Shown here: piece after piece, positions 9,773-48,400 of the stretch
Position numbering within the stretch: position 1 is the stretch's first letter
Layout: each line of letters begins with the position of its first letter
NCBI GenBank assembly: GCA_963737155.1
Contig: CAVTRN010000002.1
Coordinates: forward strand, 1,280,001 to 1,344,000
DNA length: 64,000 bases
Direction of reading: 5' to 3'
DNA from: Nitrospirota bacterium
Lineage (GTDB): Bacteria; Nitrospirota; UBA9217
Made by a program: the position numbers and the translations under genes
The notes under the pieces: model-generated
The model's input: the letters and a program-made list of their open reading frames with translations, nothing else
The model's database searches: none
What the model was told of the DNA's origin: nothing

Positions 9773-10021
9773 TTACTTTTTTTTCTGTTTTTTTAGGCCG
9801 TTCGACGAGAAAAGAATGTTTGGCTGGACTTTATAGATACTGCACAACGTAATGAGTTTCATAAGACTTGGGTTGGTTTCCTTACCTGATTCAAGACGGG
9901 ATATGTAGCCCTGCGTAATTCTTCCACGGGCGTCTGGAGCCACCTCGGAAATACGTGCAACCTGGCTCATAGAGAGTTTGTTCTGTATTCTCAATTTCTT
10001 AAGTTTTTCGGAGAGCTTCAT
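9773..10021 (-). CDS. XRE-family HTH transcriptional regulator
   Basis: LKKLR...LSMSQVA...ITQGYISRLESGKETNPS HTH_3 pattern. Confidence 0.85.
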   Translation of the reverse strand: MKLSEKLKKLRIQNKLSMSQVARISEVAPDARGRITQGYISRLESGKETNPSLMKLITLCSIYKVQPNILFSSNGLKKQKKK

Positions 10022-10637: not shown

Positions 10638-11426
10638 GTGGAGAATATTGTTGCTGTTGCCCGTGAAGCGGCACTGAAGGCGGGTAAAATCCTGCGCGAT
10701 AACATTGGCGGAACGCGCCAGATAACCTATAAAGGAGATATCAATCTGGTTACCGAGATGGATATGCGGTCTGAACGAGAAGTAGTCGAGACTGTACGTG
10801 CCGCCTTTCCCCACCATGGTATCGTTGCCGAAGAAGGGACCGATATCCAGAATGACTCGGGGTTTACTTGGATCATCGATCCCCTAGACGGCACTACGAA
10901 TTACGCTCATGGCTATCCCTGTTTTTCCGTGTCTATTGCGCTTGAACATGAAGGAACCATCGTGGCAGGCGTCGTGTACGACCCCATGCGTGAGGAGCTT
11001 TTTTCGGCGCAAAAAGGCCAGGGGGCTTTTTTAAACGGGGAAAAGGTCAGCGTTTCAGGCACCGATGAACTTATGAAGAGCCTGCTTGCCACGGGGTTTC
11101 CCTATGACCGCAAAGTGAGCGAGAAGAACAATATGAACTACTTCCATGATCTTCTCATGGCATCACAGGAAGTCCGGCGCGACGGTTCAGCGGCGCTCGA
11201 TCTTTGTTCCGTGGCATCGGGTCGATTTGATGGATTTTGGGAGTTGAAGCTGAAGCCTTGGGACGTCGCGGCTGGAAGCCTTATCGTTACTGAAGCGGGA
11301 GGTAGGGTTACTGATTTGTTGGGACAAAAGTTTGACCTGCATGCCGAAGAGATTCTTGCGAGCAACGGCAGAATTCACCGGCAGATGGTTGTGACACTCC
11401 AGGAAGCCTCGAAGCACAAGGGGTGA
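10638..11426 (+). CDS. suhB: Inositol monophosphatase family protein
   Basis: WIIDPLDGTTNYAHG, GSAALDL, WDVAAG; GTG start after GGAGG. Confidence 0.92.
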   Translation: MENIVAVAREAALKAGKILRDNIGGTRQITYKGDINLVTEMDMRSEREVVETVRAAFPHHGIVAEEGTDIQNDSGFTWIIDPLDGTTNYAHGYPCFSVSIALEHEGTIVAGVVYDPMREELFSAQKGQGAFLNGEKVSVSGTDELMKSLLATGFPYDRKVSEKNNMNYFHDLLMASQEVRRDGSAALDLCSVASGRFDGFWELKLKPWDVAAGSLIVTEAGGRVTDLLGQKFDLHAEEILASNGRIHRQMVVTLQEASKHKG

Positions 11427-11466
11427 AGTGAGCTTTTGCTGAAAGCTAGCCTATGAACACACTTTC

Positions 11467-11767
11467 GGCTATTTGTGGAGTTGCTAATTCCTCCTGTTGC
11501 CCCGCTCTTTGCCATCTCTAATGCCAATGAGGTCCCTCACGATGATCGTGGAGACGCCGCGAGCTTCTCATGGTGATAGAACAATCTGTCCCCTGGATAT
11601 GGTCTTCGCCCAGACGGGTTCCCTCAGGCAGACTGAGTTTAAGCTCAACCATAGGTGTGTTGAGTATATCATACTAGTGAGCCTATGTTCTCTTCTTAGT
11701 GGTAAAATCTCATTTGGTTGCTTCGCTACCAGCGCCTTATATCCCCGCCCTGAAGAGGCAGTTTTGC
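11467..11767 (-). mobile_element. Decayed IS200/IS605-family (tnpB) element, copy A
   Basis: Left-end motif ctcttcagggcggggatataaggcgctggtagcgaagcaacca; 11509-11560 matches 55959-56010 at 49/52 nt; reads IIVRDLIGIRDGK with stops. Confidence 0.8.
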
Positions 11768-11783
11768 TACGCAGGAGGATAAA

Positions 11784-12953
11784 ATGTCGGAAGTTTCCCT
11801 GGTGCGCTGTGCTGACTATGAGCGTGAAGGGATCTTGACAGCCATTCGTAGGGCAGTCGATCTTTTAGGCGGGATGAACGCGTTCGTGAAGAGCGGCGAC
11901 CTGGTTCTCATAAAACCGAATTTGCTCAAGGCAAAGTCGCCGGAAAGCGCGGTAACGACCCATCCCGAGGTTGTTCGTGCGGTTATTGGGCTTGTGCGTG
12001 AATGCGGCGGTAGACCTATAGTTGGCGACAGCCCCGGCATGGGCGATCTAAAAAAAGTCGCCGAAAAAGCTGGGATTCTCGATGTTCTCATTGAGGAAGG
12101 CGCAGAACTGGCTGAATTCGATGATGTGGTGCAGGTTAAAAATAATAGTGGTAGGTTTCAACGTTTCGAAGTAGCCCGTGCGGCATTCGATGCCGATGTA
12201 ATTATAAATCTTCCGAAGCTGAAAACCCATGGGATGACGACCCTGACCGGAGCGGTTAAAAATCTCTTCGGGTGCATCCCTGGAAAACGCAAAGTTCAGT
12301 GGCATTTTAATACCGGGGTGAATCACGACCTCTTTATGAAGATGCTTGTGGAACTGTATGCGCTTCTAAACCCACGGCTGACTATCATGGATGCAGTCAT
12401 CGGCATGGAAGGAAACGGACCTGGTAGCGGTGATCCCCGCCAGATCGGTGCAATACTCGCAAGTGGGGACGGTGTAGCGCTTGATGTTGTGGCTGGAAAA
12501 ATGGTCGGGGTGCCCCCGGAAAAGCTTCCCATTATAAAGGCTGCAGCGGCAGCGGGTATCGGAACAACAAAATATGACTGTATCCAGATACTCGGACAGC
12601 CACTGGAACATTTTGTAGTAAGTCAGTATCGCCTTCCACCGCAGACCCATCTTGAGTGGCAGCTTCCGGAATGGGCTCGCAAGTCTCTCAAAAACGCCTT
12701 CACAGCTAAACCGGTGATCAACCATGCGCAATGCATCCAATGCGGTATTTGCCAGGGACAATGTCCGCAAAAAGCCATTCAAAGTACGGGAAAGCACATT
12801 CAGATCCGCTACCGCGACTGCATCCGATGTTTTTGTTGCCAGGAATTTTGCCCCCACGGCGCAATAACTGTCGGTAAAGGATGGATGCTTGCGTTGCTAC
12901 CAATACAGGGGGGAAATAGGGAATGCCATAAGAAAACTGATAATTCAAGCTGA
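11784..12953 (+). CDS. DUF362-domain protein with C-terminal 2x[4Fe-4S] ferredoxin
   Basis: VLIKPNLL, TTHPEV, NLPKLKTH, GAVKNLFG, GMEGNGP; CIQCGICxxxCP and CIRCFCCxxxCP. Confidence 0.88.
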   Translation: MSEVSLVRCADYEREGILTAIRRAVDLLGGMNAFVKSGDLVLIKPNLLKAKSPESAVTTHPEVVRAVIGLVRECGGRPIVGDSPGMGDLKKVAEKAGILDVLIEEGAELAEFDDVVQVKNNSGRFQRFEVARAAFDADVIINLPKLKTHGMTTLTGAVKNLFGCIPGKRKVQWHFNTGVNHDLFMKMLVELYALLNPRLTIMDAVIGMEGNGPGSGDPRQIGAILASGDGVALDVVAGKMVGVPPEKLPIIKAAAAAGIGTTKYDCIQILGQPLEHFVVSQYRLPPQTHLEWQLPEWARKSLKNAFTAKPVINHAQCIQCGICQGQCPQKAIQSTGKHIQIRYRDCIRCFCCQEFCPHGAITVGKGWMLALLPIQGGNRECHKKTDNSS

Positions 12954-28894: not shown

Positions 28895-29034
28895 AGAGAA
28901 TGTTCCCTGGCTGTCCTGAAACCGGCTGGCCGATAAAGCTTTTTACGCAAGATTAGATCACATCGCTTCGGGTGGATAGGCTTATTCTTTCTCCCCGAGT
29001 TTGGACTGATGAAAAGGTTAAAGCGAGGAGGCTG

Positions 29035-31467
29035 ATGATGAAAAGGATTATGCTGCAGCTGACAGCTTTGGTGCTCTCAGCGTTGCTGCTGAGCTGCGCC
29101 GGCTCACAGTCGTTCCTGCGGGGAGAGCGGTATGCCGACCGAGGCGACTGGGACCTAGCGGTGAAAGAATACCGGGATGCCCTCAAACGCCAGCCTACCG
29201 ATATCGAGTACCGCTCGGCCTTGATCCGTGCCGAAGAAACGGCGGCGAACCAGCACCATAAAAAGGCGACGGATTTTCTTAAGGAGGGAAAACTCGACCA
29301 GGCTATCACGGAGCTACAAGAGGCCATCTACATGAATCCCACAGACCTGGCGGTTCAAAGCGAACTCAAATCTGCCTTCAATATAAAACAGGCCGAGGAA
29401 GACTATCGCACATCCCTCACTTTCGTGGAACTTAATAGGCTTGGCGAGGCCATCAACGAAATAAACCATGCCATCGAACTGGACCCCGAAAACGTAAAAT
29501 ATCTTGATTTCCTAAACAACCTCCAGAAAAAGAAGACCGAAAGCGGACCCGAGAATGCACTTTCCCTCGCATCGAATCAGCCCATCACGCTTAATTTCAA
29601 AAGCACCAATATCAAGGATGTCTTCGAATTTCTCTCAAAACTATCGGGCATCAACATTCTTTTCGATGAAGATGTAAAGGCACAGCCCGTTACCGTTTTC
29701 GTGAAGGATGTCTCATTCCAGTATGCCCTTAACCTACTCCTTTCAACAAACAAGCTTTTCATGAAGCAAATCAGCGCCGATACCATCATTATCATTCCGA
29801 TGAACAAGGCAAAGATTGATCAGTACCAGGACTTGGAGGTCAAAACCTTCTATATCAACAATGCAAAAGCTAAGGATATGATAAATGTAATCCGAACTAT
29901 GCTCGATATCAAGAAGGCATATGTGAACGAGACTTTGAATTCAATCACGATCAGGGAAACACCAGACAAAATGAAGCTGGTGGCGAAGGTCATAGCCGCC
30001 AACGATCTCAAGGAGGCTGAAGTCATCCTTGACATCGAAATCCTCGAGATTTCACGCAACAATTCGCTAAGTTACGGTTGGAACTTCCAGCCGGGTCTGT
30101 CCGCAACCGCCTCTATAGCGCCATTGAATACCACTACTGCTGCTGTCACGACATCGAGCACGGGGGCGGTCGCTCTGAGCCAGCTCACGCACCTAAACGG
30201 TGATAGCGTGTTCGTCTCGGTACCCAGCCTCGTCGTGAATATGATCAAGCTGGATTCGGACGCTCAGACACTGGCGAACCCGCGGGTACGCGTGATGAAT
30301 CACCAAATGGCAAAATTTCATATTGGGGACAAAATCCCGGTTCAGACATCAACCATCCAATCTACTGCCACGGCGGCAGTTACCTCGACCTTCGAGTATA
30401 AGGATATCGGCATCAAGCTCAATATTGAACCGATAATCCATCTCAATAATACGGTCACTTTAAAGCTTGGTTTGGAGGTCAGCACCCTCGGCGCCCCTCT
30501 GACTTTTGGAAACGGCCAGACACAGTATGAGTTCGGAACGCGGAACGTCGATACAATCATGAATCTTCGCGACGGAGAGACTGTGATCATCGGAGGCCTG
30601 ATCCAGGACAACGAGTCGAAGACGATGTCAAAAATCCCAATCCTGGGTGACCTCCCGGTTTTGGGCAAGCTTTTCTCGTCGACGGACAACGAGGGGGTTA
30701 AAACGGACGTTCTCATGTCAATCACGCCGAATATCGTGAGCAATATGGAGCTTCCTGATAAGGATACGCAGCTTTTCTGGTCAGGAACGGAAGATCAATT
30801 CGACATCAAACCGATCTTCGCCTCCGAGACAGGCAATAGCACAAAAGCGGTTGAAAAGCCCTATGACAAGGCTGCACTGCTGGATCTCCTGAGTCAGCGG
30901 GAACAGGCCGGCGTCGCCGGAACGAAGCAAGCGCTTGTGTCGGCGCCGGTAGCGACCGCGGCTGGACAACAGGCCGGCGTAGCCGGAACGAAGCAAGCAC
31001 TAGTCTCGGCACCGGTCGTGACTGCGGCGGGGCAACCGCCAGCCGGCGCTCTGGAGGCGCTCACGGAAGTGAAGCCGGCCGAAATTGCTTTTCCCGTGGG
31101 CCAGGACGCGCGGTTTGAGATTTCTACGGGAACTGTCAAGGGCCTTTACGGCGCGATCATGACCCTGAGCTACGATCCTCTGATCGTGGATTTCAAATCT
31201 GCTAGTGAAGGCACGCTCTTGAAAAAAGACGGCCAGCAAACGTCATTTCTGTTTTCAAACAATGCGAAGGCGGGCACTGTGGATATTTACATGACTCGCA
31301 TCGGCAATGTGGGCGGCATAAACGGTTCCGGAACGCTCTGCGATATCGTATTCCAGGGGAAAACCGCTGGAACGAGCGAACTTCATGTAACGACCGTGAA
31401 GCTGACGAATTCGAATCACGAGCCGATCAAAACCGGCACCAAGGGCGCTCGGCTGACCGTGAAATAA
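29035..31467 (+). CDS. Secretin (GspD/PulD-like) lipoprotein with N-terminal TPRs and C-terminal cohesin-like domain
   Basis: Lipobox LLLSC, TPR helices, LANPRVRV, LRDGETVIIGGLI, KIPILGDLPVLGKLFS. Confidence 0.9.
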   Translation: MMKRIMLQLTALVLSALLLSCAGSQSFLRGERYADRGDWDLAVKEYRDALKRQPTDIEYRSALIRAEETAANQHHKKATDFLKEGKLDQAITELQEAIYMNPTDLAVQSELKSAFNIKQAEEDYRTSLTFVELNRLGEAINEINHAIELDPENVKYLDFLNNLQKKKTESGPENALSLASNQPITLNFKSTNIKDVFEFLSKLSGINILFDEDVKAQPVTVFVKDVSFQYALNLLLSTNKLFMKQISADTIIIIPMNKAKIDQYQDLEVKTFYINNAKAKDMINVIRTMLDIKKAYVNETLNSITIRETPDKMKLVAKVIAANDLKEAEVILDIEILEISRNNSLSYGWNFQPGLSATASIAPLNTTTAAVTTSSTGAVALSQLTHLNGDSVFVSVPSLVVNMIKLDSDAQTLANPRVRVMNHQMAKFHIGDKIPVQTSTIQSTATAAVTSTFEYKDIGIKLNIEPIIHLNNTVTLKLGLEVSTLGAPLTFGNGQTQYEFGTRNVDTIMNLRDGETVIIGGLIQDNESKTMSKIPILGDLPVLGKLFSSTDNEGVKTDVLMSITPNIVSNMELPDKDTQLFWSGTEDQFDIKPIFASETGNSTKAVEKPYDKAALLDLLSQREQAGVAGTKQALVSAPVATAAGQQAGVAGTKQALVSAPVVTAAGQPPAGALEALTEVKPAEIAFPVGQDARFEISTGTVKGLYGAIMTLSYDPLIVDFKSASEGTLLKKDGQQTSFLFSNNAKAGTVDIYMTRIGNVGGINGSGTLCDIVFQGKTAGTSELHVTTVKLTNSNHEPIKTGTKGARLTVK
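30904..31035 (+). repeat. 66-bp tandem duplication in secretin linker
   Basis: QAGVAGTKQALVSAPVATAAGQ / QAGVAGTKQALVSAPVVTAAGQ. Confidence 0.9.
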
Positions 31468-31572
31468 GTTATAGAAATGCGGAAAATGGAAGAACAGACG
31501 GGACACCCCTTTTTATGCTTCCCTTCGGGCGGAAAGACCGAAGGGTCGAAGGACTGCGGAAAAGGGGAATTC

Positions 31573-32052
31573 ATGTGCCGCGGCTTTACCTTAATCGAAA
31601 TGATCGTCGTGATGGTGATCATGGGGATTCTCGCAAGCGCAGTATTACCTTTGTCGCGCATGACCGCAAAACGTGCGAAAGAAATAGAGCTTAGAAGCGG
31701 TCTAAGAACGCTGCGTACGGCGATCGATGCGTTCCAGAAAGACTGTATCGAGAAAAGACTGGCAAGTGATTATTGCGATCCCGAGCAGGATAATTACCCT
31801 GAATCGCTCGAACAGTTGACGAAGCCTCTGGATTTGACCGGCTCGGTAGCAGGCAAAACCAAAAAGTATTTGAGGACAATTCCGCGCGATCCCATGACTC
31901 CGCTTGATTCGCCCGACAATCCAAACAACTGGGGTCTTCGTTCCTACAGCGATGAGCCTGATTCCGCGCAATGGGGCGGCGGCAATGTATTCGACATTTA
32001 TTCGAAAAGCGACGGGATCGCGCTCGATGGGTCTAAATACAGTACGTGGTAA
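31573..32052 (+). CDS. Type II secretion pseudopilin (GspG-like)
   Basis: GFTLIEM prepilin motif; KYLRTIPRDPM, Y..W C-terminus. Confidence 0.88.
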   Translation: MCRGFTLIEMIVVMVIMGILASAVLPLSRMTAKRAKEIELRSGLRTLRTAIDAFQKDCIEKRLASDYCDPEQDNYPESLEQLTKPLDLTGSVAGKTKKYLRTIPRDPMTPLDSPDNPNNWGLRSYSDEPDSAQWGGGNVFDIYSKSDGIALDGSKYSTW

Positions 32053-37043: not shown

Positions 37044-38816
37044 GTGAAAGTACACAAAAAAACGCATACCTGCGGAGAACTTAAAAAGAAGGATGTAGGC
37101 GCAATTGTGACACTCATGGGGTGGGTGCATACGAGACGTGACCATGGCGGCCTCGTGTTCGTGGATTTACGCGACCGTGGTGGAATCACACAGGTCGTTT
37201 TGAATCCGGAAACGTCTGCAGAATCCCACGAACTGGCGCATGATATTCGAAGCGAATACGTGCTCGCTGTGACCGGAACGGTTTCGCTGCGGCCGTCTAA
37301 CACAATAAACGAAAAGCTTCCGACCGGAGAGATCGAAATCGTGGTGAGCGATCTCCGAATTCTGAACACGGCCAAGACCCTGCCGTTCATGATCGAGGAC
37401 GAGACGGACGTGGCCGAGATGTTGAGGCTTAAATACCGATACCTGGACCTCCGGCGACCGAGCCTCCAGAAAATGCTTATGACGCGCCACGTCATTACGC
37501 AGATCGTGCGGCGCTTTCTTGACAGCCATGGATTCATCGACATTGAAACGCCGTTCCTCACGAAGAGCACTCCTGAGGGAGCGCGTGACTATCTTGTTCC
37601 GAGCAGGGTAAATCCCGGCATGTTTTTTGCGTTGCCGCAGTCTCCCCAGCTTTTTAAGCAGATCCTCATGGTAGCGGGTTTTGAACGTTACTACCAGATT
37701 GTAAAATGCTTCCGTGACGAGGATCTGCGCGCCGATCGCCAACCCGAATTCACCCAGATCGATCTTGAAATGTCTTTTATCGACGAAGATGACATCATCG
37801 CTCTGATGGAGCAATTACTGACGGCGGTTGTGAAGGAAATAAAAAACATCGATATAACGACGCCTTTCCCGAGGCTTCCGTACCGTGAAGCCATGGACCG
37901 TTATGGCTCGGATAAGCCGGACACTCGATTTGGCCTTGAACTGAAGGATATTTCTGATATCGCCAAAATATCGGACTTCAAGGTTTTCATTCAGGCCGTG
38001 GAACTGGGCGGCAAGGTGAAGGGTTTTGCTGCTCCCGGCATGGCAGACCTCTCACGCAAGGAAATGGACAACCTGACGAACGAAGTGAAGGTTTTCGGAG
38101 CAAAGGGCTTGGCTTGGATCAAGGTAAATGCATCGGGCTTTGAATCTCCGATCGTGAAGTTTTTCAAGGACGGACAGGTCGAATCTATTGCTGGGCGGCT
38201 CGATGCAAAACCGGGCGATCTCATGATGTTCATCGCTGACAGTCCCAAGATTGTAACGGACACGCTTGGTTATTTGCGCCTGCTCATAGGCAGACGACTG
38301 AAGCTCATCGATGAACGTAAGTTGAACTTTCTTTGGATCACTGAATTTCCGCTGGTGGAGTGGAACGCTGATGAGAAGCGCTACGATTCCATGCACCATC
38401 CCTTTACCGACCCGAGGGAAGAGGATCTTGAATTCATGATGACTGATCCGCTCAAGATCAGGGCCAAGGCCTATGATATTGTGCTAAATGGTTCGGAGAT
38501 CGGCGGAGGCAGCATCCGTATCCACCGTTCGGAGGTGCAGTCACAGATCTTCAATTTACTGAATATTGCAGACGTCGACGCTCGAAACAAATTCGGTTTC
38601 CTCCTCGAGGCGCTTGAGTACGGCGCCCCGCCCCATGGCGGCCTAGCCTTCGGCCTAGACCGGATCACTGCGATATTGACCGGCGCTCAATCCATCCGTG
38701 ACGTCATTGCCTTTCCGAAGACGCAGAAGGCCGTCTGCGTCATGACCGAAGCGCCTTCACGCGTGTCCCCGGCGCAGCTTCGGGAGCTGTCGATCAAACT
38801 GGATATTGTGGAATAA
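37044..38816 (+). CDS. aspS: Aspartate--tRNA ligase
   Basis: RRDHGG, LPQSPQLFKQ, FRDEDLRADRQPEFTQ, PPHGGLAFGLDR. Confidence 0.97.
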   Translation: MKVHKKTHTCGELKKKDVGAIVTLMGWVHTRRDHGGLVFVDLRDRGGITQVVLNPETSAESHELAHDIRSEYVLAVTGTVSLRPSNTINEKLPTGEIEIVVSDLRILNTAKTLPFMIEDETDVAEMLRLKYRYLDLRRPSLQKMLMTRHVITQIVRRFLDSHGFIDIETPFLTKSTPEGARDYLVPSRVNPGMFFALPQSPQLFKQILMVAGFERYYQIVKCFRDEDLRADRQPEFTQIDLEMSFIDEDDIIALMEQLLTAVVKEIKNIDITTPFPRLPYREAMDRYGSDKPDTRFGLELKDISDIAKISDFKVFIQAVELGGKVKGFAAPGMADLSRKEMDNLTNEVKVFGAKGLAWIKVNASGFESPIVKFFKDGQVESIAGRLDAKPGDLMMFIADSPKIVTDTLGYLRLLIGRRLKLIDERKLNFLWITEFPLVEWNADEKRYDSMHHPFTDPREEDLEFMMTDPLKIRAKAYDIVLNGSEIGGGSIRIHRSEVQSQIFNLLNIADVDARNKFGFLLEALEYGAPPHGGLAFGLDRITAILTGAQSIRDVIAFPKTQKAVCVMTEAPSRVSPAQLRELSIKLDIVE

Positions 38817-39179: not shown

Positions 39180-42100
39180 TTATCCTAGCTTCTCGATCAA
39201 CTCCCTCACTGTAACAAAAAGATCTCCCTCGATCGGATGGACTATCGGTGCATGCCGGTTCTGGTTCAGCTTCATCAACGGTGCATCCGGGTCCTTGTTG
39301 AAGCAAAGGATCTCGGTGCGAGTTCCCACATAGTCTATGTGCTGCGGCGCTCCCGAGATGCCCAGGGCGATGATGAGCTTTGGGTTGACACGGATACCGG
39401 TCTGTCCGATTTGTGCATCAAGCGGCAGCAGCTTTAAATCCTGCGTGACTTTTCGTGTCGCGCCGAACAATGGCGCAAGACCCCGTCCTTCCAGAACTGA
39501 CTTGAGTTCCTGCGCCAGTTCGAATCCTGCGCGGTCCCTGATACCGTATCCGAGGTCGATAATTATGTCGGCTTGTGAGAGCGTGGTCAATGCTTCTGGC
39601 GGGAGAGGCATAAGCCACTCACTCGACAGAGGATACTCGAGCGCAACAGCTGTGAAATTGCTTCGCATCTCCGGTGCACCGAATTCGGCATTCCGGGGAA
39701 TAGTAAGGAATGCCGATTCTTCTCCCAGACGCTCTTTTCTGATAAGCCTGTTGTCATAGGCGGCCATTGAAATTCTCATGGATCGGTCTTCCTGGTACAC
39801 GATTGACCCGATATCCCCGTAAACGTGAACGTGCCGTCCTGTGGAAAATAGCTGAGCGGCAACTACGCCAAAAGCATCAAGCCAGTAGGAACCTCCCAGA
39901 ACTAACGGCTTATCCGATGTTTTGGTGATGACGCGAAGCAGTTCCTCCTTTCCCTCAATAGACAACATACTATCTCCAGTGTCCAGGCAGAAAGCCCGGT
40001 CAGCCCCGTTCGCGCGCGTCAGTCCCAACAGCATGGACCAGAACGCCCTTGGGGCAGCGACGACGGCATTCATCGGTCTGCTGAAACCATCGGCAATTTT
40101 TCTCCCTGCTCGAAGGATCGCGGCATTAGCCTTCTGCTCGCGCGGGTCAAGAATTGCCCAGATCGCGTGGTCGTCAGACAACCTGCCTCGGACTATTTCT
40201 CCCTGATACTCTTCCGCCTGCGCCGAGCGCGCTTGGGCAGCATAGTTACCGAGATATTCAGCAGCAGCCTGAACTGTGGTAATTGTTGCCGCCGGAGCAG
40301 CAGCTCCCGCTGGCCGCTCGAATCGGGGTGTTTGTGCTGCGGCGGATTGAATAGCGGAATTAATCACCATAATATGCGCGAATGACGATGTCACTGTCAT
40401 CGATATATCCTGTTCAGACGGGGCAGTGACACCAGTAATGCTGAGAACGGCCGGTGGGGCAATTTGCTCAAGACCCATCCCATCAGGGCGGGCCAGGAAC
40501 CGCGACTTTCGGTAATGTGTTCTAGAAAGAGCTCCGGCCAGATAGGCGCCGGCTCCCTGCTCGCCATTCAGGCATGAAGATCCTATGGTAATAAGATCGT
40601 ATTGGTTCATTACTTCCAGAGTATGTACAGTGCTTGCAATTTCTGCAGGAGTCGCAAAATTGCAGTTCAACCGGATAAGTCGGTCTGCAGAGGCGGCGGC
40701 TGAACGAAGGAGTTGTTCGTGTCCGGCGTTGCCGATAAGAAGCGCATCGACATAGACCATATTACTACTTTCTGCTTTGAGTGAAAGAGCTTGAGTGACG
40801 CCAGAGAGATCTAAAGGATCAGTGATCTCGACGATCTCTTTGATCGAACCGTGCTCCAGTCTGGGTTTCGGTGACAGATCGAAAACAGGCCGAAGTATGC
40901 AGAGTATCCTGAGTTGAGCCTTGAGAGGGGCTGAAGTTTCGAAGACTGTTTCGACCTGCAAGTATGCCCGGCCAAGCGCTGCATCCGCTGCGCGTACTTC
41001 AGCTAGATCGAGGTTCTGCCTTACCTGCTCCCATGCATATTTAAAGCGGTCCCTGATTGCCGCAAGGCGGGCCAGTGTGCGTTCAGCAGCGCGATCTCCC
41101 GCAATGAGCAGCAAGGGAACATATTCGGGATCGGATTGCTCAAGAAGTTTTTTTCGACAGCCGAGCCATTCCATCCTGTAGTAAATACATTCGAGTCGCA
41201 GAATCTCTCCTGCCATATCCGCGAGCGGGAACAGGGCAGGCTGGAGCATGGCATCGGACCATGATAAATCGCCGAGCAGGGCTACCGCATCTTTAACGAA
41301 TGTACGAAGCATGTTTTTCCATTCGGCAAGCACCTGAGCGCTGTTGTCCCTTGATTGTGCGGTCAGCTCGGGCCATGTCTGCGCCTGGGTGATCAGGTCG
41401 CGTAGGATCAGGAAGCGCTGCACTTCGTTCGTTCCTTCGTAGATCGTAAGGATGCGGGCGTCACGCCGCGCTTTTTCGAGCAGGAAATGTTCCGTTTGCC
41501 CCTGAGGGCCGAAAGCGTATTCGACGAGCGTGAGGAGTTCGTGGATGTCCTCGGAACAGGCGTATTTGGCAATGGCAGACTCCATGCGCACCGATTCGTG
41601 AGGGCGGTCAAAGAGGCCAATGAGATAGAAGGCAAGAGACTCGCTCCCGAACAGGATTGCGGCGGCTTCGCCGAGAAGTTTATCCCGATCGGGAGAAGGA
41701 GTGAGCTGTGAACGCGCTTCATCGAGGAGCTTATGCATGAGCGCTCCGGAGACAACGGCGAGCCCGCAGCGTCCTACATTCAGCGTTTCGAGCGCGTTGG
41801 CCTGTCCATGGCCCTCGTAACCGATTACGGCTTCGCGCGGGACGCGGACATTGTCGATTGATATCTCGTTCGTAGGTGAACCACGCTGACCCATCTTCTT
41901 TTCATCGGCGCCGACCTTGAGCCCTTCGCTGTGGCGGTCCACGAGAAAGCCGGTTACGCCCTCGTCCGTTCGGGCAAAAAGACAAAACTGGGTGGCAATG
42001 CTGCCGTTGGTGATCCACATCTTTGCACCGGTCAGACGGTAATATTCATACATCGGTTTGGTCCCCGCCATTCGCGACTGGCCAATGTCGTGAAACTCGC

Positions 42101-45100
42101 ATACGCTTCCCTTGTAGTGGTAATACCGTGTTCCCCGGTCCGAGGTGTAATCATAATGGTCGTAGTGAATCAAAGAGGATTGTCCATCGGGTGTGCCGTA
42201 TGCAATGCCCTGGCGCGTGAACAGGATTCTGTCCGCATCGATCAGGTAACGGATGTTCTTCTCATCTATCTCGTCGACATAGAAAGCATATCTCCCGTCC
42301 TCAAGCGGTGTGAGCTCCGCGACTGAGAGCCTTGCAATAGTCTTAATACCGCCAGAATCAGATCCCGCCGTGGGTTCAGTCAAGGCAAAGGCGCTCACAC
42401 CGCTGTGGCCGAGATAGCGCAGGAAGAGTTTATGGCATCGCTCCCGGCGAGGCAGCTCATCAAGCGCAGCCACTATATCAGGCATGACATGCTCAAAGAG
42501 TTCTGTGGCATGCTTAAGGGCTGTTATGAATCCATTGAAATCCCCGCGTTGTCCGGCAACACCGGCGCTGTAAAAGGCGCGCAAGAAATTGGAGCTTAAG
42601 TACTTAACCACACGCGTATGACGAATGCGATCGTCCACAAGCTTCATGATCGATTCATACTCTTTCCTGATCCAGGCAGGATCGGGGGAGGAAAAGGATT
42701 TAATGATCCCCGCGAGTCGCTTGCTTATCTCGCCCAAATGCCGGGAGTCATGTGCCAGTGGCGCAAGCTCCTCGCGCACGCGAGGTAACTCATCTTCCAA
42801 CCCGAGAAGGATCGGTGTCGTGCCGATGCTTGTGCTGGCCATGATGAGCAGATTTATTGCCGCATCTCCGAAATTCCCTGCTGCTGAGTTCAGGATATAA
42901 TATTCGGCTTTATGCCAGCCGAGACCGTTTTCGGCTTGTGGAATGTAGGTCGCGAGCCATTTGTGCTCTTTTATTGCCGTGATTACCTCATCGGGCAGGC
43001 TGTGGTCCCGCTCAATTGCGCGTTCAATGAAGAGACCGCCGAAAAATTTATCCCGGCAGTTTATTTTGAACCAGTCGGTAAGTTCAAGCCATCGCGCTCG
43101 CAAATGAGGATCGTGGAGCTGAATTTCAGGAAGATAACGGGGAGAGCGGTCGAAGACGTTCTTCAGAAAGCTACCAGAGGAATGAGGAACTCCCGGAGTT
43201 GTGCAGAACGTTTTGTAATCACTGTCCAGTGCCACTGAGGGAAGGATCGGCTCAGCAGGGAACAGGGCTGATGGTGAAACACGACCGCGTCCAGCTGACA
43301 ATAGAGCTTCCTGAAGCATAGTTTTTGCCTGTCCTAGCAGCACTTCAGCCGCGGCTGCTTCGGCTTCCCTGCTTGTGCCGTTTTCGAGTGCAAGCTCAAT
43401 TTTATGGAGTACGATGCGGATACCAATGAGGAGCGCTTTAACCTGCCCCGCCAGCAGGGAATCCACGTCTTCAGGTAGATCAATGCAGAGAGTTTCGAGC
43501 TCCTCAAGCTGCTTCGCGCGTTTTTCGAGCGGTTCTCCCCGAATAGTCATCGATTTCCAAGATTGGAAAATTGACCTGTCTCTGCCTCGTAAACGGAGAA
43601 GGGCATGCAAAGATGCAGCCGCTCCGTAACCGGGAGAAAGGAATCGGAACAGCGCACTGTCGCGGTAGAATCTCGAGAGCAGATCATCCTCGGAATATGC
43701 AAAACCGCCGAAAACCTGGCCGGCATCGTAGCCTAGGCTGCCGGGCTCAGGGCCGAAAGCAGCAGCGGCGAGGGTTGAAGATATAAGATCAAGTTCGGTG
43801 TCTGGTGTCTCGAGTTCAGCGAAAGAATCAAAGAGCGTTTTTAGCAGCAAGCGCCAGGCTTCGATCCTGCTGATCATGGCTTTTACCGCGCCGAGTTTGG
43901 CGATGCCGTCACGGCCTTCCGTATCGAGCATCTGGCCAGGGAACTGAATGCGGCCTATCGCGTGCTCCGCAGCTCTTCGCGAAAGATAATCAGCGGCTCC
44001 AAGGGCAACGGCAAGATAGGAAAAAGCGCAAGGGATCCCATTATTGTCATGGGCGAGGACGTCGTGTCTTTTCACGCTGCAGTCTAGCGTAACATCGGAA
44101 AATGACGCCGCTCTGAAGCCGATTGTCGGCGTGCTCGTGATCATAACACCGTTTGTGGTTAGCGGTATGATATTTCCCCTCCCTCCCGCTATGAGAAGGA
44201 GTGTATGACATGCGGCAAGTGGAACAAAATTTAATGTGCCCCGGATTCGGACACTTTCAAGACCCTCCTCTATCACGAGATGCTCTGCTCTCACGGCGCA
44301 GATCCCGGGATTGAGCATGGTGCCTGCTGTCCTTAGCGTCTTGATCGCTGCAAACTGGTGTGCTGCAATGAGACCGAGTGCTGGGCTGATTGTTGAGAGC
44401 GCCCTGACCGCTTCATGCGGAGAGTCGGTGTGGTCCGCAATAAATGTGTGCAGCATTGCAGCTCCTGCTGCTCCCAGCGGTTCCTCCTCCCATTGCTTGA
44501 CCACGCGATCCGGAAAGAGAAGTGATATCGATTCATAAGATATGGTCCCGGTGCTTCGTCGCGCCTTTGCGGTCGTCGCAGGAGGTTCGACATCGCGTAC
44601 CCCTCTCCATGTCAAAAGGCGCTGTTCCAAGGTTCGACAGTTGTAGAACACATGGAACAGCTTTCCCTCCATCAGCCGTAATTCGATGGCGGTTTTATCC
44701 GAGTGGATCAGCTGGGATAACCCCTCCCTGCTGTCATTCGAGAGCGCCGTCTCTAGATGCCCGAGCTTTTCGATCAGCCGTTTTCCAATCAAGAGGGGCC
44801 AGGCTTTTCTACTTTTATCCCCGGAGGAAGGAAATTGTTTCACAGCATCCATGAAAGCCAACGTCGCATTCAAGGCAGACCGGCAGGCAGCCTTGATGTT
44901 GTCACTCAGATACCAAACCGTTTCATCGAGTGCCCGTATGATTGCATGCCCAGCCTCAGAAGGGCGGAACCTTGGAGAGGAATCCCTGAGCGAATTCAGC
45001 AGCAGCGATATGGTTCCGCTCTCGGGTCGGTAAATGAGTTTATGGTCCGTGTGTCGGCCCCAGAGTGTGCGGGCCGGCTCGGCGCGCCAGCACGTTTCGC

Positions 45101-47090
45101 ACTTGATACAGTTTTCGTAGTTCACCGTTACCTTGCCGCGTCCCATGAGCGGAACGTCATAAATATAAACCCGGGCGGGACAAACCCACCAGAGTGCCGA
45201 CTTGGACATCTCCTGCTGCTCCGCAAGGGAGTCCGGCCAGAGGGTTTTTATGTGGGACGGGGTGCCCACACGGTATGTGTTGGCAGCGAGCTTTGTCTCC
45301 AGATTTTCACGGACCTTTACTGATTCGAGATTCCGCGCTTTCCTCTGTGATTCGCCATAAGCACTAACTGGTTCGGCTAGAAATTTGTCCACGGGCGTTT
45401 TTATCACGTAAAAACGAAAAGCGTCCCAAACGCCCGTCCAAAGGGCAATCAGAAAGAGCGAGGTGCCAAAGAGGGGAAGGATGAGGAGGTCGCTCAGGTT
45501 CAGGCCGCGTATGACGAGGAGAACGGCCTTTGATAATTTCTTATCTAGCGTCTGTCCGTCATGGGAATAGACCTGCTCGAGCGCGAGCAGGATTGCGGGC
45601 GAAAGCCGTTTGATGAATGAGTTTACAGGCCAAGGCAAATTTGAGGGGTCGATTGTCCCGTTGTTGATGCGAAGCAGGATGCCCAGCTTCGGGTCGGGGG
45701 CGGGTGTTTTTGTGAAGACATTGGCAATCCAGTGCCCGATTGTGGCCGGGTTGAATACGGACATCATAATTGGCTTCCATAGCCTGAGCGATCTGATCAT
45801 CTTCGAGTTGTCCGAAATGGACTCCCTGAGGCCGCGCCAGGAAAGAAGGTGGTTTCTGAGGAACCGTCCTGTTTGAATATAGCTTCCGCTTGATAAGAAA
45901 TGCGCTGATCCGCAGACGATGTCGACAGTCCTGCCGAAGAGGGCCGATGAACCCCCAAAATACTTAGGCCACGTTGACAGATACCGGGCATTTTTGCCGT
46001 ACGCACTGGCCTGGAGTGGCGCAAGATATTCCTGCTCGAGATTTTTCGCATCCGGCGTACGACCTCGGCCCAGTATTGCTTTCACGGCCCGAGCGAAGTA
46101 AAGTCCGGTTGCAGATGCCGGGCCGGTGAAATTCGGGAAGGGGAAGTCGATACCTAATCCGACAGGGGCTCCACCCACGGCAAGGCCGTCTTCAACCAGA
46201 ACAGGCCGTTCGGTCCATCCGCCACTCCTGATGAGCTTAGCTCCATAAGCGGAGAGTTCTGCGCTTCCGGCAAGTTCCTTTATATAGGGTAGTCCCCGCA
46301 ACCACTCGAAAAGTCTGTCGTGGTCGCCGTGGTAATGCTTTTTCAAATTGTCCAAGGGGACCACATATCCGAGAGACAGGCTGTCGCTGTTTGTATACAG
46401 GAACCCCCCGATATTAAGTCTAGCCGTCTTTCCGGCGATTGAAGCATTCCGGATGAGAAGCTCATAGGCGCATCCTTCGCCGGGTTGCAAATTGAACCGA
46501 GATTCGATGTCAGAAGGCTTGAGCGATAGCACTGCTTTCACACCCTGGAGATAATGAGGTTCCGAAACACGTTCGAGCTGTTCTGACCGAATCAGATGGG
46601 AAGCGTCGCCTTCGGCGATAAAAACGATGTCCGCATAAAGTGGCCCGCGGTTTGTCTGGACCCCGACGACTCTTCGACCCTTCCGAAGAAGTGCAAAAAC
46701 TGTTGTTTCGGTGATATGAACCGCACCTTTTCTGTGTGCAAGGTGCGCAAAGTAGGGGTCATAGATGGGTCTGAGCACAGTGTAGCAGTTTTTAAACGCA
46801 TCGGCGTTCATGAACTCCACGCCAACGACGTCAAGACCGTTATGCATGAGAGTTCCGCGCCGGATTACCCGCCGTTCAAAGGGTGCGGTCTCAACGGCTT
46901 CGCGGCCGAAGCAGTCATTTTCAGCAAGAATTTCGGTAAAGTAAACGCATCCCGACCAGTTTTCGGAACCTGCATAAACACCTGCTTCGATCAGCGCAAC
47001 GGATATACCCGCATTGGCAAGAGCGCCAGCAGCGGCGACACCCGCGGGACCGGCCCCGACAACAATGACATCGAATTTATACCGGATCAT
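39180..47090 (-). CDS. Giant fusion: FixC-like FAD oxidoreductase + FixX-like ferredoxin + two acyl-CoA dehydrogenase domains + EtfB + EtfA
   Basis: Unbroken 2636-aa ORF with GAGPAG; CPARVY..NCIKCETC; QVFGGFAYSED; FALTEPTAGSD, KMWITNG, IYEGTNEVQR; GATR, QIGQTG, GISGAPQH. Confidence 0.9.
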   Translation of the reverse strand: MIRYKFDVIVVGAGPAGVAAAGALANAGISVALIEAGVYAGSENWSGCVYFTEILAENDCFGREAVETAPFERRVIRRGTLMHNGLDVVGVEFMNADAFKNCYTVLRPIYDPYFAHLAHRKGAVHITETTVFALLRKGRRVVGVQTNRGPLYADIVFIAEGDASHLIRSEQLERVSEPHYLQGVKAVLSLKPSDIESRFNLQPGEGCAYELLIRNASIAGKTARLNIGGFLYTNSDSLSLGYVVPLDNLKKHYHGDHDRLFEWLRGLPYIKELAGSAELSAYGAKLIRSGGWTERPVLVEDGLAVGGAPVGLGIDFPFPNFTGPASATGLYFARAVKAILGRGRTPDAKNLEQEYLAPLQASAYGKNARYLSTWPKYFGGSSALFGRTVDIVCGSAHFLSSGSYIQTGRFLRNHLLSWRGLRESISDNSKMIRSLRLWKPIMMSVFNPATIGHWIANVFTKTPAPDPKLGILLRINNGTIDPSNLPWPVNSFIKRLSPAILLALEQVYSHDGQTLDKKLSKAVLLVIRGLNLSDLLILPLFGTSLFLIALWTGVWDAFRFYVIKTPVDKFLAEPVSAYGESQRKARNLESVKVRENLETKLAANTYRVGTPSHIKTLWPDSLAEQQEMSKSALWWVCPARVYIYDVPLMGRGKVTVNYENCIKCETCWRAEPARTLWGRHTDHKLIYRPESGTISLLLNSLRDSSPRFRPSEAGHAIIRALDETVWYLSDNIKAACRSALNATLAFMDAVKQFPSSGDKSRKAWPLLIGKRLIEKLGHLETALSNDSREGLSQLIHSDKTAIELRLMEGKLFHVFYNCRTLEQRLLTWRGVRDVEPPATTAKARRSTGTISYESISLLFPDRVVKQWEEEPLGAAGAAMLHTFIADHTDSPHEAVRALSTISPALGLIAAHQFAAIKTLRTAGTMLNPGICAVRAEHLVIEEGLESVRIRGTLNFVPLAACHTLLLIAGGRGNIIPLTTNGVMITSTPTIGFRAASFSDVTLDCSVKRHDVLAHDNNGIPCAFSYLAVALGAADYLSRRAAEHAIGRIQFPGQMLDTEGRDGIAKLGAVKAMISRIEAWRLLLKTLFDSFAELETPDTELDLISSTLAAAAFGPEPGSLGYDAGQVFGGFAYSEDDLLSRFYRDSALFRFLSPGYGAAASLHALLRLRGRDRSIFQSWKSMTIRGEPLEKRAKQLEELETLCIDLPEDVDSLLAGQVKALLIGIRIVLHKIELALENGTSREAEAAAAEVLLGQAKTMLQEALLSAGRGRVSPSALFPAEPILPSVALDSDYKTFCTTPGVPHSSGSFLKNVFDRSPRYLPEIQLHDPHLRARWLELTDWFKINCRDKFFGGLFIERAIERDHSLPDEVITAIKEHKWLATYIPQAENGLGWHKAEYYILNSAAGNFGDAAINLLIMASTSIGTTPILLGLEDELPRVREELAPLAHDSRHLGEISKRLAGIIKSFSSPDPAWIRKEYESIMKLVDDRIRHTRVVKYLSSNFLRAFYSAGVAGQRGDFNGFITALKHATELFEHVMPDIVAALDELPRRERCHKLFLRYLGHSGVSAFALTEPTAGSDSGGIKTIARLSVAELTPLEDGRYAFYVDEIDEKNIRYLIDADRILFTRQGIAYGTPDGQSSLIHYDHYDYTSDRGTRYYHYKGSVCEFHDIGQSRMAGTKPMYEYYRLTGAKMWITNGSIATQFCLFARTDEGVTGFLVDRHSEGLKVGADEKKMGQRGSPTNEISIDNVRVPREAVIGYEGHGQANALETLNVGRCGLAVVSGALMHKLLDEARSQLTPSPDRDKLLGEAAAILFGSESLAFYLIGLFDRPHESVRMESAIAKYACSEDIHELLTLVEYAFGPQGQTEHFLLEKARRDARILTIYEGTNEVQRFLILRDLITQAQTWPELTAQSRDNSAQVLAEWKNMLRTFVKDAVALLGDLSWSDAMLQPALFPLADMAGEILRLECIYYRMEWLGCRKKLLEQSDPEYVPLLLIAGDRAAERTLARLAAIRDRFKYAWEQVRQNLDLAEVRAADAALGRAYLQVETVFETSAPLKAQLRILCILRPVFDLSPKPRLEHGSIKEIVEITDPLDLSGVTQALSLKAESSNMVYVDALLIGNAGHEQLLRSAAASADRLIRLNCNFATPAEIASTVHTLEVMNQYDLITIGSSCLNGEQGAGAYLAGALSRTHYRKSRFLARPDGMGLEQIAPPAVLSITGVTAPSEQDISMTVTSSFAHIMVINSAIQSAAAQTPRFERPAGAAAPAATITTVQAAAEYLGNYAAQARSAQAEEYQGEIVRGRLSDDHAIWAILDPREQKANAAILRAGRKIADGFSRPMNAVVAAPRAFWSMLLGLTRANGADRAFCLDTGDSMLSIEGKEELLRVITKTSDKPLVLGGSYWLDAFGVVAAQLFSTGRHVHVYGDIGSIVYQEDRSMRISMAAYDNRLIRKERLGEESAFLTIPRNAEFGAPEMRSNFTAVALEYPLSSEWLMPLPPEALTTLSQADIIIDLGYGIRDRAGFELAQELKSVLEGRGLAPLFGATRKVTQDLKLLPLDAQIGQTGIRVNPKLIIALGISGAPQHIDYVGTRTEILCFNKDPDAPLMKLNQNRHAPIVHPIEGDLFVTVRELIEKLG

Positions 47091-47421
47091 GAGTTCTCCT
47101 GTGAACGAGAGAAGGATGCATGGAACATGAAATTGAAATGAGGAAGGTTTGCTGAGTATTCTTTGGTTAGATTATAGCAAATATTCGCACAGCAAGTTAA
47201 TGCCAAGAGGAGAAATAATTCCAGAATTCGTAATTTTCAAGGGTAATGCGGTCTTGAGATATTGTTTATCATAGACACTGCACCTGCCATTTCTTTCTAC
47301 GCAAGAAGTCCTGATAGTATTTAAACCGCAACTTGACAAAATGCTCTTTCCAGAAAGAATCTCGTGAATGTGTTGGCTTAGGCTTACACTGCCTGAGTTA
47401 CAGATTTTTTCAATTATCATC

Positions 47422-47450
47422 TTGACATGGTGGCGCGACTAATGTATGCT
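47422..47450 (+). promoter_or_regulatory. Sigma70-type promoter of cold-shock gene
   Basis: TTGACA-17 nt-TATGCT. Confidence 0.6.
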
Positions 47451-47508
47451 TAGCCATCCGTGGACATGTTCCCGGGTAATTTCAAAAACGAAGCAGAGGA
47501 GAAACAGA

Positions 47509-47709
47509 ATGGCAAATGGTGTAGTGAAGTGGTTCAACAACAGCAAGGGGTTTGGGTTCATCACGCAGGAAAATGGTGAGGATGTGTTCGTTCATTTTTC
47601 GGCGATCCAGGGTGATGGTTTCAAGTCCCTGAACGAGGGCGACAAGGTGACCTTCGAAGTTGTGAAGGGGCCCAAAGGCCTTCAGGCAGCCAACGTAAAT
47701 AAGGCTTAA
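47509..47709 (+). CDS. Cold-shock protein (CspA family)
   Basis: [30 protein letters not shown]. Confidence 0.96.
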
Positions 47710-47859: not shown

Positions 47860-48400
47860 TTGAATACCCAGCAGCTTGCTGCTGGGATGAAAAGGATATC
47901 CTGACGAAGTCAGGATGATTTTCTGATACAATACGGGCCATGAGCCCATTGAGAAGAAGCAGACATTGTGTCTATGATCTCAAGTACCATTTCGTATGGA
48001 TACCGAAATATCGTAAAAAACTGTTCGACGTTCGGATGACGAAACGATTGAAAGAAATCTTTCGTGAGATAGCTGAACAGTACGATTTGGAAATAGATAC
48101 GATGGAAGTCATGGATGACCATGTACACTTGTTTTTGGTTGTTCCTCCGAAGTATGCGTCTGCGAAGGTAGTACAAATGATTAAAAGTATCTCCGCCAGA
48201 ATAATGTTCCAAGAGTTCCCGGAGATAAAGAAAAAGCTCTGGGGAGGGGAACTGTGGAACGATGGTTACTTTGTCCGTTCGGTTGGCGACAAAGTAACGG
48301 CGGAAGTGATTAGAAACTATATTCGGTATCAGCATGATGAGCAAATAGGTTTTAGATTCTAGTCAAAATGCCTCGCAGCTTGCTGCGGGGTTATTTACTT
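47860..48400 (+). mobile_element. IS200-type element with subterminal hairpins
   Basis: cccagcagc-tt-gctgctggg (47867-47886) and cctcgcagc-tt-gctgcgggg (48371-48390) flank tnpA. Confidence 0.85.
47940..48362 (+). CDS. tnpA: IS200/IS605-family Y1 transposase
   Basis: YHFVWIPKYR, DHVHL (HUH), LW..GYFV.SVG, YIRYQ catalytic Tyr. Confidence 0.95.
   Translation: MSPLRRSRHCVYDLKYHFVWIPKYRKKLFDVRMTKRLKEIFREIAEQYDLEIDTMEVMDDHVHLFLVVPPKYASAKVVQMIKSISARIMFQEFPEIKKKLWGGELWNDGYFVRSVGDKVTAEVIRNYIRYQHDEQIGFRF

Follow-up and report, generated by a model that had tools for sequence, protein, structure and literature searches.

Can a single polypeptide carry electrons all the way from an acyl-CoA to the quinone pool? 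Acyl-CoA dehydrogenase (ACAD), electron transfer flavoprotein (ETF) and ETF-quinone oxidoreductase (ETF-QO) are the textbook relay of three separate proteins. The question is raised by a stretch of 64,000 nucleotides from a Nitrospirota bacterium (GenBank assembly GCA_963737155.1, contig CAVTRN010000002.1, positions 1,280,001 to 1,344,000 of the forward strand), which is called the window below. One open reading frame (ORF) of this window, P0001, encodes 2636 amino acids (aa). A model that saw only the letters and their ORFs had read it as the whole relay in one chain, in the order FixC-FixX-ACAD-ACAD-EtfB-EtfA (the original prediction). Our results suggest that P0001, with about 290 kDa, is an acyl-CoA:quinone oxidoreductase, self-contained and non-bifurcating, and we put the probability of this reading, drawn from sequence, at about 0.62.

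Module architecture of P0001

The modules were checked with Pfam, NCBIfam, profile searches against PDB sequences, and two AlphaFold2 models compared by Foldseek. An alignment of 49 sequences, consisting of P0001 and 48 intact related loci, is the basis of all counts out of 49. The ORF listing and the translation gave zero internal stops in P0001, as had been claimed, and the second-longest ORF overlapping 36-50 kb of the window has 638 aa. A frame of 7.9 kb without stops at about 50% GC is far beyond chance. Every module of the predicted order was recovered by profile or fold comparison, and the coordinates first given for the modules proved right within a few tens of residues. The features along the frame are as follows, with column counts referring to alignment columns conserved at 90% or more.

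39180..47090, minus strand: whole ORF P0001, 2636 aa plus stop codon, ATG start; full-length homologs exist
45783..47090, minus strand: FixC/EtfC-like domain binding flavin adenine dinucleotide (FAD), putative quinone-reducing flavin (residues 1-436)
45309..45782, minus strand: family-specific insertion (residues 437-594), with a hydrophobic segment at residues 522-560 (window 45411-45527)
45021..45308, minus strand: FixX/EtfX-like ferredoxin domain (about residues 595-690), with C637, C661, C664 and C667
44538..45020, minus strand: helical linker 1 (residues 691-851), 1/175 columns, helices in the model
43551..44537, minus strand: ACAD-like 1, pseudo-ACAD (about residues 852-1180)
43071..43550, minus strand: helical linker 2 (residues 1181-1340), from column conservation and the model
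41391..43070, minus strand: catalytic ACAD 2 (residues 1341-1900)
40941..41390, minus strand: post-ACAD helical extension, VLCAD/ACAD9-like (residues 1901-2050)
40191..40940, minus strand: EtfB-like domain III (residues about 2051-2300), poorly conserved, 4/250 columns
39606..40190, minus strand: EtfA domain I (residues 2301-2495), poorly conserved, 0/195 columns
39183..39605, minus strand: EtfA domain II, electron-transfer FAD site (residues 2496-2636), 39/141 columns

The two acyl-CoA dehydrogenase units

ACAD 2 passed the Pfam cut-offs of PF02771 (23.2 against 22.9), PF02770 (61.2 against 33.3) and PF00441 (65 against 22.4), and its best PDB match by profile was CarC (E 1.1e-50), with VLCAD/ACAD9 and the Bacillus-type FadE as further close relatives. 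Foldseek ranked ACAD9 and VLCAD (8phe_A, 8ca1_A) as the top folds for the AlphaFold2 model of residues 761-1960, which had a predicted local distance difference test (pLDDT) value of 87.1 and a predicted template modelling (pTM) score of 0.85. The ACAD9/VLCAD matches extend to profile position 1951, and that of 3owa_A to 1994. In ACADs, the Glu of YEGT is catalytic, and TEPxAGSD and WITNG form the FAD loops. All of these are invariant in ACAD 2 (49/49), as TEPTAGSD at 1571-1578, WITNG at 1692-1696 (W1692-N1695) and the catalytic E1885 in YEGT. Conservation of at least 90% was found in 41/78 columns of its middle part and 47/142 columns of its C-terminal part. A named substrate class was not obtained from NCBIfam, in which every ACAD equivalog stayed far below its cut-off, the best being FadE-Bacillus with 135 against 600 bits. 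According to the model and the alignments, the N-domain is helical and enlarged, and the beta-domain carries a conserved insertion of about 95 residues, rich in strands, at residues 1587-1682 (window 42045-42332, minus strand), after the TEPxAGSD loop and before the WITNG strand. Inside this insertion, R1614, D1618, R1655 and D1668 are invariant; distant homologs, among them some from Verrucomicrobiota, have lost parts of it.

ACAD-like 1 shows the alpha/beta/alpha pattern of the ACAD fold (DSSP of the model) and a profile match to 2dvl_A (E 1.6e-11). The two ACAD domains that had been predicted therefore both stand as folds, but domain 1 does not stand as a second dehydrogenase: a Glu occupies the YEGT-equivalent position in 1/49 sequences, and ACAD-like 1 has no equivalents of TEPxAGSD and WITNG. 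What ACAD-like 1 keeps in 49/49 is R1047, Q1049, F1050, Q1125 and G1129, which align with the canonical RxQFG and QxxGG. In an ACAD dimer, each of these two motifs touches the FAD that is bound by the opposite subunit. ACAD 2, aligned to VLCAD, has lost both of them (R1793 of RxQFG in 19/49). The available text of PMC11153573 describes the same division for the heteromeric ACADs ChsE4-ChsE5 and ChsE1-ChsE2: the isoalloxazine and the substrate are bound by the alpha subunit, which also carries the Glu, and the beta subunit makes contact only with the ADP-ribose of that FAD. By its motifs, ACAD-like 1 is predicted to be a non-catalytic partner and no second dehydrogenase.

A complex prediction of ACAD 2, ACAD-like 1 and FAD scored 0.81, against 0.00 for the best of three controls, a score reached by 58/80 solved complexes and 2/110 mismatched pairs; the pass may reflect likeness to solved ACAD dimers, and it was obtained with a custom alignment and a ligand, unlike the calibration. 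Between runs the contacts agreed by 100%, and the pLDDT of the partner was at least 86. The predicted interface joins the TAGSD loop of ACAD 2 (1574-1578) to residues 1048-1051 and 1121-1135 of ACAD-like 1. From this model, we read the two units as a cis pseudo-heterodimer that would have one active site.

The FixC- and FixX-like end

The FixC-like domain, with residues 4-436, matched chain 7koe_C of the T. maritima EtfABCX over its full length (7koe_C residues 3-437; E 9.2e-50, profile against PDB). The GxGxxG of its FAD fold is kept in 47/49 sequences, and 124/436 of its columns are conserved at 90% or more. The following insertion contains the hydrophobic segment of the original prediction, which proved to be a family feature: residues 522-560 are variable in sequence yet hydrophobic in 45/49 (KD19 of at least 1.6). 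Beyond this segment, P0001 has strongly hydrophobic 19-residue windows at just two places, both short, one in the Rossmann motif at the N-terminus and one in ACAD 2.

The FixX-like domain, with 17/65 columns conserved at 90% or more, matched 7koe_D (E 7.5e-5) and the cluster domain of the pig ETF-QO 2gmh_A (E 1.5e-3) by profile. Its residues C637, C661, C664 and C667, arranged as CPxxxY ... CxxCxxC, form one 4-Cys [4Fe-4S] motif that is present in 49/49. EtfX is reported to hold two [4Fe-4S] clusters (main text of PMC10734219). In the 49-sequence alignment, there was no conserved Cys for a second (distal) site where EtfX has its extra Cys. A single 4-Cys motif without this extra Cys points to the cofactor set of ETF-QO, probably one FAD and one [4Fe-4S].

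The ETF module

A profile of residues 1961-2636 matched the full-length EtfA chains 6fah_A (E 1e-33), 5ol2_A, 7koe_B and human 1t9g_R, and the same profile matched the EtfB chains 1o94_C, 4kpu_B, 6fah_B and 1efv_B. The AlphaFold2 model of this part (pLDDT 88.4, pTM 0.79) was matched by Foldseek to EtfA chains down to E 3.7e-15 and to EtfB chains down to E 9.1e-9, and Pfam ETF_alpha (PF00766) was detected on EtfA domain II (E 5.7e-18). A profile of the EtfB-like part only gave 4kpu_B (E 6.8e-26, 94.9 bits) and 1o94_C (E 2e-25, 93.4 bits); PDB bit scores of this kind do not separate bifurcating from canonical ETFs, and motif columns were used instead.

At the electron-transfer FAD site, R2546 is kept in 48/49, and QIGQTG and SGAPQH in 47-49/49. 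The signatures of bifurcating ETFs are the Arg of RPxFGG and, in the small subunit, RxGV and GxxSPTxV (main text of PMC10734219). The column of EtfA domain I aligned with the RPxFGG Arg, which lies next to the bifurcating FAD, has Arg in 4/49. Likewise, the family alignment has no conserved RxGV or GxxSPTxV in the EtfB-like part, where the SPTQV of 6fah_B aligns to unconserved positions. Judged from these columns, the ETF module is predicted to be non-bifurcating, with its electron-transfer FAD site kept and the bifurcating-site signatures absent, and its base looks like a scaffold with no second catalytic site. Along the whole frame, the cofactor motifs that the predicted chain from acyl-CoA over FAD, FAD, [4Fe-4S] and FAD to quinone would require are kept in 46-49/49 sequences, which is consistent with the electron path of the original prediction.

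Distribution and integrity of the fusion

A scan with one genome per species gave 68 distinct related loci, all from metagenome bins. A search for full-length homologs had been named as a check of the fusion, and a single open frame of at least 2400 aa was found in 48/68 loci. The other 20/68 stop at contig edges or are split into two or more frames, the latter including L022, L025, L034, L036 and L039. In L035 (8001-16325), the longest frame has 2410 aa and begins after the FixC FAD domain, which is itself in another frame. By label, the loci are distributed as follows.

38/68: Nitrospirota-type, including Nitrospiria and Leptospirillia
10/68: Verrucomicrobiota
7/68: Acidobacteriota
5/68: Planctomycetota
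1/68: Gemmatimonadota
2/68: Betaproteobacteria/Alcaligenaceae
5/68: unclassified

Of 8000 candidates scored in a full-length, word-indexed protein search, 432 reached E <= 1e-3. For the 120 that were listed of these, lengths are 1547-2919 aa and identities 34-80%, most with 100% query cover, and homologs carry names such as "acyl-CoA dehydrogenase family protein", "FAD-binding protein" and "electron transfer flavoprotein-quinone oxidoreductase". Within the 49-sequence alignment, identity falls to about 30% and the catalytic motifs stay invariant. When 1.84 billion cluster representatives were searched with the profile of the pseudo-ACAD module, 80 of them matched at E <= 1e-30; the module lies at about residues 760-950 in the long ones, and four of the most divergent and shorter ones (2285-2442 aa) keep the order FixC-like ... 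ACAD ... ETF_alpha. In a sample of 301 genomes from the phylum of the window, residues 691-1340 are present in 48 genomes, namely 40/63 of family f1 plus the window's own genome and 7/7 of family f5, and had no match in the other families of that sample. A search of shorter proteins with residues 845-1560 gave 44 matches and no convincing case of a natural split form; judged by name and by the length of their contigs, mostly short, these matches appear to be fragments at contig ends or parts of copies with frameshifts.

Among the ten sequencing runs listed, six metagenome runs hold part of the P0001 stretch (shares 0.13-0.27), the runs being soil metagenomes from three studies, and no RNA run holding the stretch was among the ten. 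Four runs gave 16, 8, 12 and 10 contig pieces on the stretch, about 150-590 bases long and mostly at least 99% alike. No indels were listed in these pieces, which cover the stretch partially, with many bins empty and no piece spanning it. A skip of 90 bases at 41912-42003 was seen in contig pieces; its flanks have only 18-21 letters with loose ends, and it was taken as the conserved ACAD of other organisms. The junctions are taken as genuine because 48 related loci are intact, and the contig pieces are neutral on the junctions. The fusion is no assembly artefact, and it is shared by uncultured bacteria from several phyla.

Gene neighbourhood and genome context

The signals ahead of the start codon are as follows.

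47096-47100, minus strand: Shine-Dalgarno AGGAG, 6 nt 5' of the ATG, consensus match only
47171..47200, minus strand: promoter-like TTAACT-18-TATAAT, 10/12 consensus letters, TG before the -10, consensus match only

The aspartyl-tRNA synthetase gene aspS (37044-38816, plus strand) lies downstream of the P0001 gene and is convergent to it. On the upstream side, the translations read by eye indicated a cold-shock-protein-like ORF (47446-47709, plus strand) and, about 850 bp upstream, an IS200/IS605-type transposase-like ORF (47940-48362, plus strand), beyond which genes for an HD-domain protein and a DEAD-box helicase are located. The P0001 gene looks monocistronic. Elsewhere in the window, the gene at 28972-31467 (plus strand) encodes a secretin of 831 aa that has TPR repeats at its N-terminus and a cohesin domain at its C-terminus, and directly after it lies the gene for a protein with a prepilin-type N-methylation motif (31477-32052).

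The flanking ORFs of the 68 loci and the window were clustered, and Pfam was run on ten recurring neighbours. The convergent aspS was found in 13 sources, that is, 12 Nitrospirota-labelled loci and the window. Nine Acidobacteriota-type loci have an amidohydrolase near the homolog, and 6-7 Verrucomicrobiota loci have a GlpD-like protein (glycerol-3-phosphate dehydrogenase), a GDPD protein (glycerophosphodiester phosphodiesterase) and a sugar transferase. The GlpD-like/GDPD loci are L046, L048, L049, L050, L061, L062 and L068, and a patatin-Omp85 gene lies near the homolog in the Acidobacteriota loci L043, L053, L054 and L055. These two kinds of neighbours give a faint hint at lipid turnover, as lineage synteny only.

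The genome of the window comprises 4.84 Mb in two contigs. It also has three ordinary ACADs, two other EtfA genes and two FadB-like genes; no other FixC-like or Fer4_ETF_QO-like sequence was found in it. At one locus (L070, G000:C1:662000-678000; 7404-11123, minus strand), a 307-aa EtfA is adjacent to a 267-aa ORF, presumed to be EtfB, and beside this pair a 615-aa Fer4+CCG protein is an EtfD/HdrD-like candidate ETF:quinone oxidoreductase. At another (L069, G000:C2:1404000-1420000; 3245-12139, minus strand), the order is plsX, fabH, ACAD, etfB, etfA, fabD, fabG, fabF, in which the ACAD is canonical and has 385 aa, the EtfB has 261 aa, and the EtfA has 405 aa and an N-terminal two-cluster ferredoxin domain (CarE-like). 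As an ETF-dependent enoyl reductase, this set could take the place of FabI. Since ordinary ACADs and EtfAB sets are present, the fusion is an additional specialised system and not the sole route from acyl-CoA to quinone. The genome has two MqnA/D-family genes of the menaquinone pathway, and menaquinone is therefore the likely quinone. Two genes for heme-copper oxidase subunit I were also found, and the respiratory setting appears versatile. Matches to dsrA and dsrB are located at G000:C2:1107884-1110090, with one TAG inside the dsrA match.

Proposed electron path

We propose that the catalytic ACAD (residues 1341-1900, base E1885) would oxidise an acyl-CoA, and that the pseudo-ACAD (852-1180) would complete the FAD site of ACAD 2 in cis, like the beta subunit of an alpha2beta2 ACAD. 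Electrons would then be transferred singly to the FAD of a mobile EtfA domain II (2496-2636), which is predicted to sit on the degenerate base of EtfB and EtfA domain I. From there, they may go to the single FixX-like [4Fe-4S], the FixC-like FAD and the membrane quinone, probably menaquinone, with segment 522-560 holding the quinone-reducing end at the membrane. The loading of the cofactors, the direction of the flow, the quinone acceptor, the swinging of the head domain and the substrate are what we infer from sequence in this scheme.

Several observations weigh against the reading of P0001 as an acyl-CoA:quinone oxidoreductase, besides the caveat on the complex prediction. Some of the family models were weak or missing: the FixC models of NCBIfam stayed far below their cut-offs, with PRK10015 matching P0001 at E 1.3e-47 and 162.5 bits against a cut-off of 466, Pfam Fer4_ETF_QO reached 16.9 bits, below its cut-off of 24, and Pfam PF01012 was not detected in P0001 itself. 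A single membrane-crossing helix of 20-25 residues would place FixC and FixX on opposite sides of the membrane, and therefore a monotopic or re-entrant anchor is expected. As the ETF base is weakly conserved, domain II may or may not move as it does in free ETF. Genes of beta-oxidation, which had been reported to be missing near P0001, were indeed found neither among the neighbours in the window nor among the flanking ORFs of the 68 related loci, and no gene partner is common to several phyla in these loci and the window, where synteny stays at the level of the lineage. The ACADs, EtfAs and FadBs already in the genome, together with the EtfAB/Fer4+CCG cluster, leave the need for the fusion unexplained. 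There is also an energetic point. The potential of the enoyl-CoA/acyl-CoA couple is about -10 mV. Menaquinone has a potential of -74 mV (main text of PMC10734219). With these two potentials, the oxidation of acyl-CoA with menaquinone is uphill under standard conditions. As a speculation, the fusion may exist for the tight channelling of this marginal step.

More tentatively, although with an appreciable chance of being right, P0001 may be a complete respiratory entry module, the first ETF with both donor and acceptor tethered in cis. Its head would shuttle between a one-site ACAD pseudo-heterodimer and a single-cluster quinone reductase. In these uncultured phyla of soil and groundwater, the fusion may serve to force channelling in the marginal step from acyl-CoA to menaquinone, with an unusual acyl-CoA as substrate, possibly a bulky one derived from lipids.

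Alternative explanations

The same wiring could run in reverse, as a quinol-dependent or otherwise reductant-fed enoyl-CoA reductase that serves as an electron sink or in lipid synthesis. The reduction of enoyl-CoA by menaquinol is downhill, CarCDE and Bcd-EtfAB, to which the ACAD and EtfA parts match best in the PDB, run reductively, and the ACAD and EtfAB set within the fab operon of the same genome suggests a reductive use of ACADs. However, the known reductive ACAD-ETF systems receive their electrons from NADH through a bifurcating FAD, and P0001 does not have the signatures of such a site; neither the window nor the related loci have conserved fab or other biosynthetic neighbours, and the ETF-QO/FixC modules are known as quinone reducers. 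We consider the reverse direction unlikely. The substrate could also differ from a free acyl-CoA, being an acyl group bound to a carrier protein or a bulky lipid- or steroid-like thioester, with electrons still going to quinone. It is rather unlikely, in our judgement, since the best matches of ACAD 2 are ordinary straight-chain or VLCAD-type ACADs, carrier protein, ligase and steroid genes were not seen beside P0001 or its homologs in the related loci, and the neighbour hints from GlpD-like/GDPD genes in Verrucomicrobiota and patatin-Omp85 in Acidobacteriota are lineage synteny only. What speaks for such a substrate is that ACAD 2 falls under all NCBIfam equivalog cut-offs and has matches that include the carrier-protein dehydrogenases ProlPCPDhRedW and PigA, as well as the enlarged N-domain, the beta-domain insertion of about 95 residues and the lineage-level neighbours just named. 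Heteromeric ACADs with one active site are, moreover, described for bulky steroid substrates in the available text of PMC11153573.

A bifurcating or confurcating enzyme resembling Fix/EtfABCX, which would couple NADH, the quinone and acyl-CoA/enoyl-CoA couples and ferredoxin or flavodoxin, would agree with the fact that, for the FixC, EtfA and ACAD parts alike, the nearest relatives of solved structure come from the bifurcating complexes 7koe, 6fah and 5ol2, and with the similar scores of the EtfB-like part against the bifurcating 4kpu_B (94.9 bits) and the canonical 1o94_C (93.4). It is nevertheless very unlikely: the RPxFGG Arg is found in 4/49 and RxGV and GxxSPTxV are not conserved, among the catalytic-type modules, conservation is lowest in the two domains where the bifurcating FAD and NADH would bind (4/250 and 0/195 columns), and the distal EtfX cluster is missing. 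An assembly artefact, or a fusion pseudogene in decay, is a practically negligible possibility. A few loci are split into two or more frames (L022, L025, L034, L036, L039), and by eye an IS200-like gene lies about 850 bp upstream, but 48/68 independent loci are intact, the identity goes down to about 30% with the catalytic motifs invariant, and the metagenome contig pieces list no indels where they cover the stretch, which they do in part.

Comparison with known systems

How the mobile head of ETF chooses its partners is still studied with transient complexes. In the reading of P0001 as an acyl-CoA:quinone oxidoreductase, nature would offer a chain with donor, carrier and acceptor in fixed stoichiometry, convenient for cryo-EM and for kinetics from thioester to quinone, and also a ready-made fused example of a one-active-site ACAD heterodimer. 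The fusion marks an unannotated catabolic (or reductive) capacity in uncultured Nitrospirota, Acidobacteriota, Verrucomicrobiota, Planctomycetota and Gemmatimonadota, which current pipelines label only "acyl-CoA dehydrogenase family protein" or "ETF-quinone oxidoreductase". A full-text literature search, with most subscription journals and supplements outside its scope, found no paper on the whole chain in one polypeptide, in agreement with the original prediction that no characterised example was known.

The classical chain of ACAD, EtfAB and ETF-QO resembles P0001 in its redox modules and their inferred order, in the single-cluster 4-Cys motif (2gmh_A) and in having no bifurcating site. P0001 differs from it by all modules being on one polypeptide, by the cis pseudo-heterodimeric ACAD that we propose and by the degenerate ETF base. 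Compared with ETF-QO, the putative quinone reductase of P0001 is closer to FixC (7koe_C) and has in addition the insertion of about 160 residues with the hydrophobic segment. The best structural relative of the N-terminal module is the T. maritima EtfABCX/FixABCX (7KOE; main text of PMC10734219), which shares with P0001 an EtfC-like FAD, an EtfX-like ferredoxin, an EtfAB-like module and a membrane-associated quinone reducer, the last being a prediction for P0001. As described in that text, EtfABCX has four subunits, two [4Fe-4S] clusters and an NADH-fed bifurcating FAD, and has no ACAD, unlike P0001.

The best sequence matches of ACAD 2 (CarC, E 1.1e-50) and EtfA (CarE, E 1e-33) belong to CarCDE (6FAH) and Bcd-EtfAB (5OL2). 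The ACAD docked to ETF domain II in these complexes is the geometry expected for P0001, whereas they consist of separate subunits with homotetrameric ACADs, are NADH-driven and bifurcating, and have no quinone reductase. An EtfB-then-EtfA single chain, an order shared with P0001, occurs in SaETF of Sulfolobus acidocaldarius, which has about 600 aa, is bifurcating and stands alone beside ACAD and FixCX genes according to the available text of PMC12042025; in P0001, the ETF makes up the C-terminal quarter of the 2636 aa and does not have the bifurcating signatures. Fusions of ferredoxin and EtfA are also mentioned in PMC12042025, as is a butyryl-CoA reductase that contains an EtfA domain II.

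The alpha2beta2 ACADs ChsE4-ChsE5 and ChsE1-ChsE2, as far as the available text of PMC11153573 describes them, split their motifs as ACAD 2 and ACAD-like 1 do, a likeness that rests on the division of motifs and not on sequence affiliation. They are encoded by two genes and form tetramers, while the P0001 units are fused about 160 residues apart, together with ETF and quinone reductase modules. VLCAD and ACAD9, the top folds for the 761-1960 model, have in common with P0001 the helical extension after the ACAD core. VLCAD is, however, a homodimer of chains of about 600 aa with two active sites, and ACAD 2 has extra insertions and a putative pseudo-partner. Taken together, all modules of P0001 are known from these systems, and what is new is their complete fusion, the predicted cis pseudo-heterodimeric ACAD and the stripped-down ETF base.

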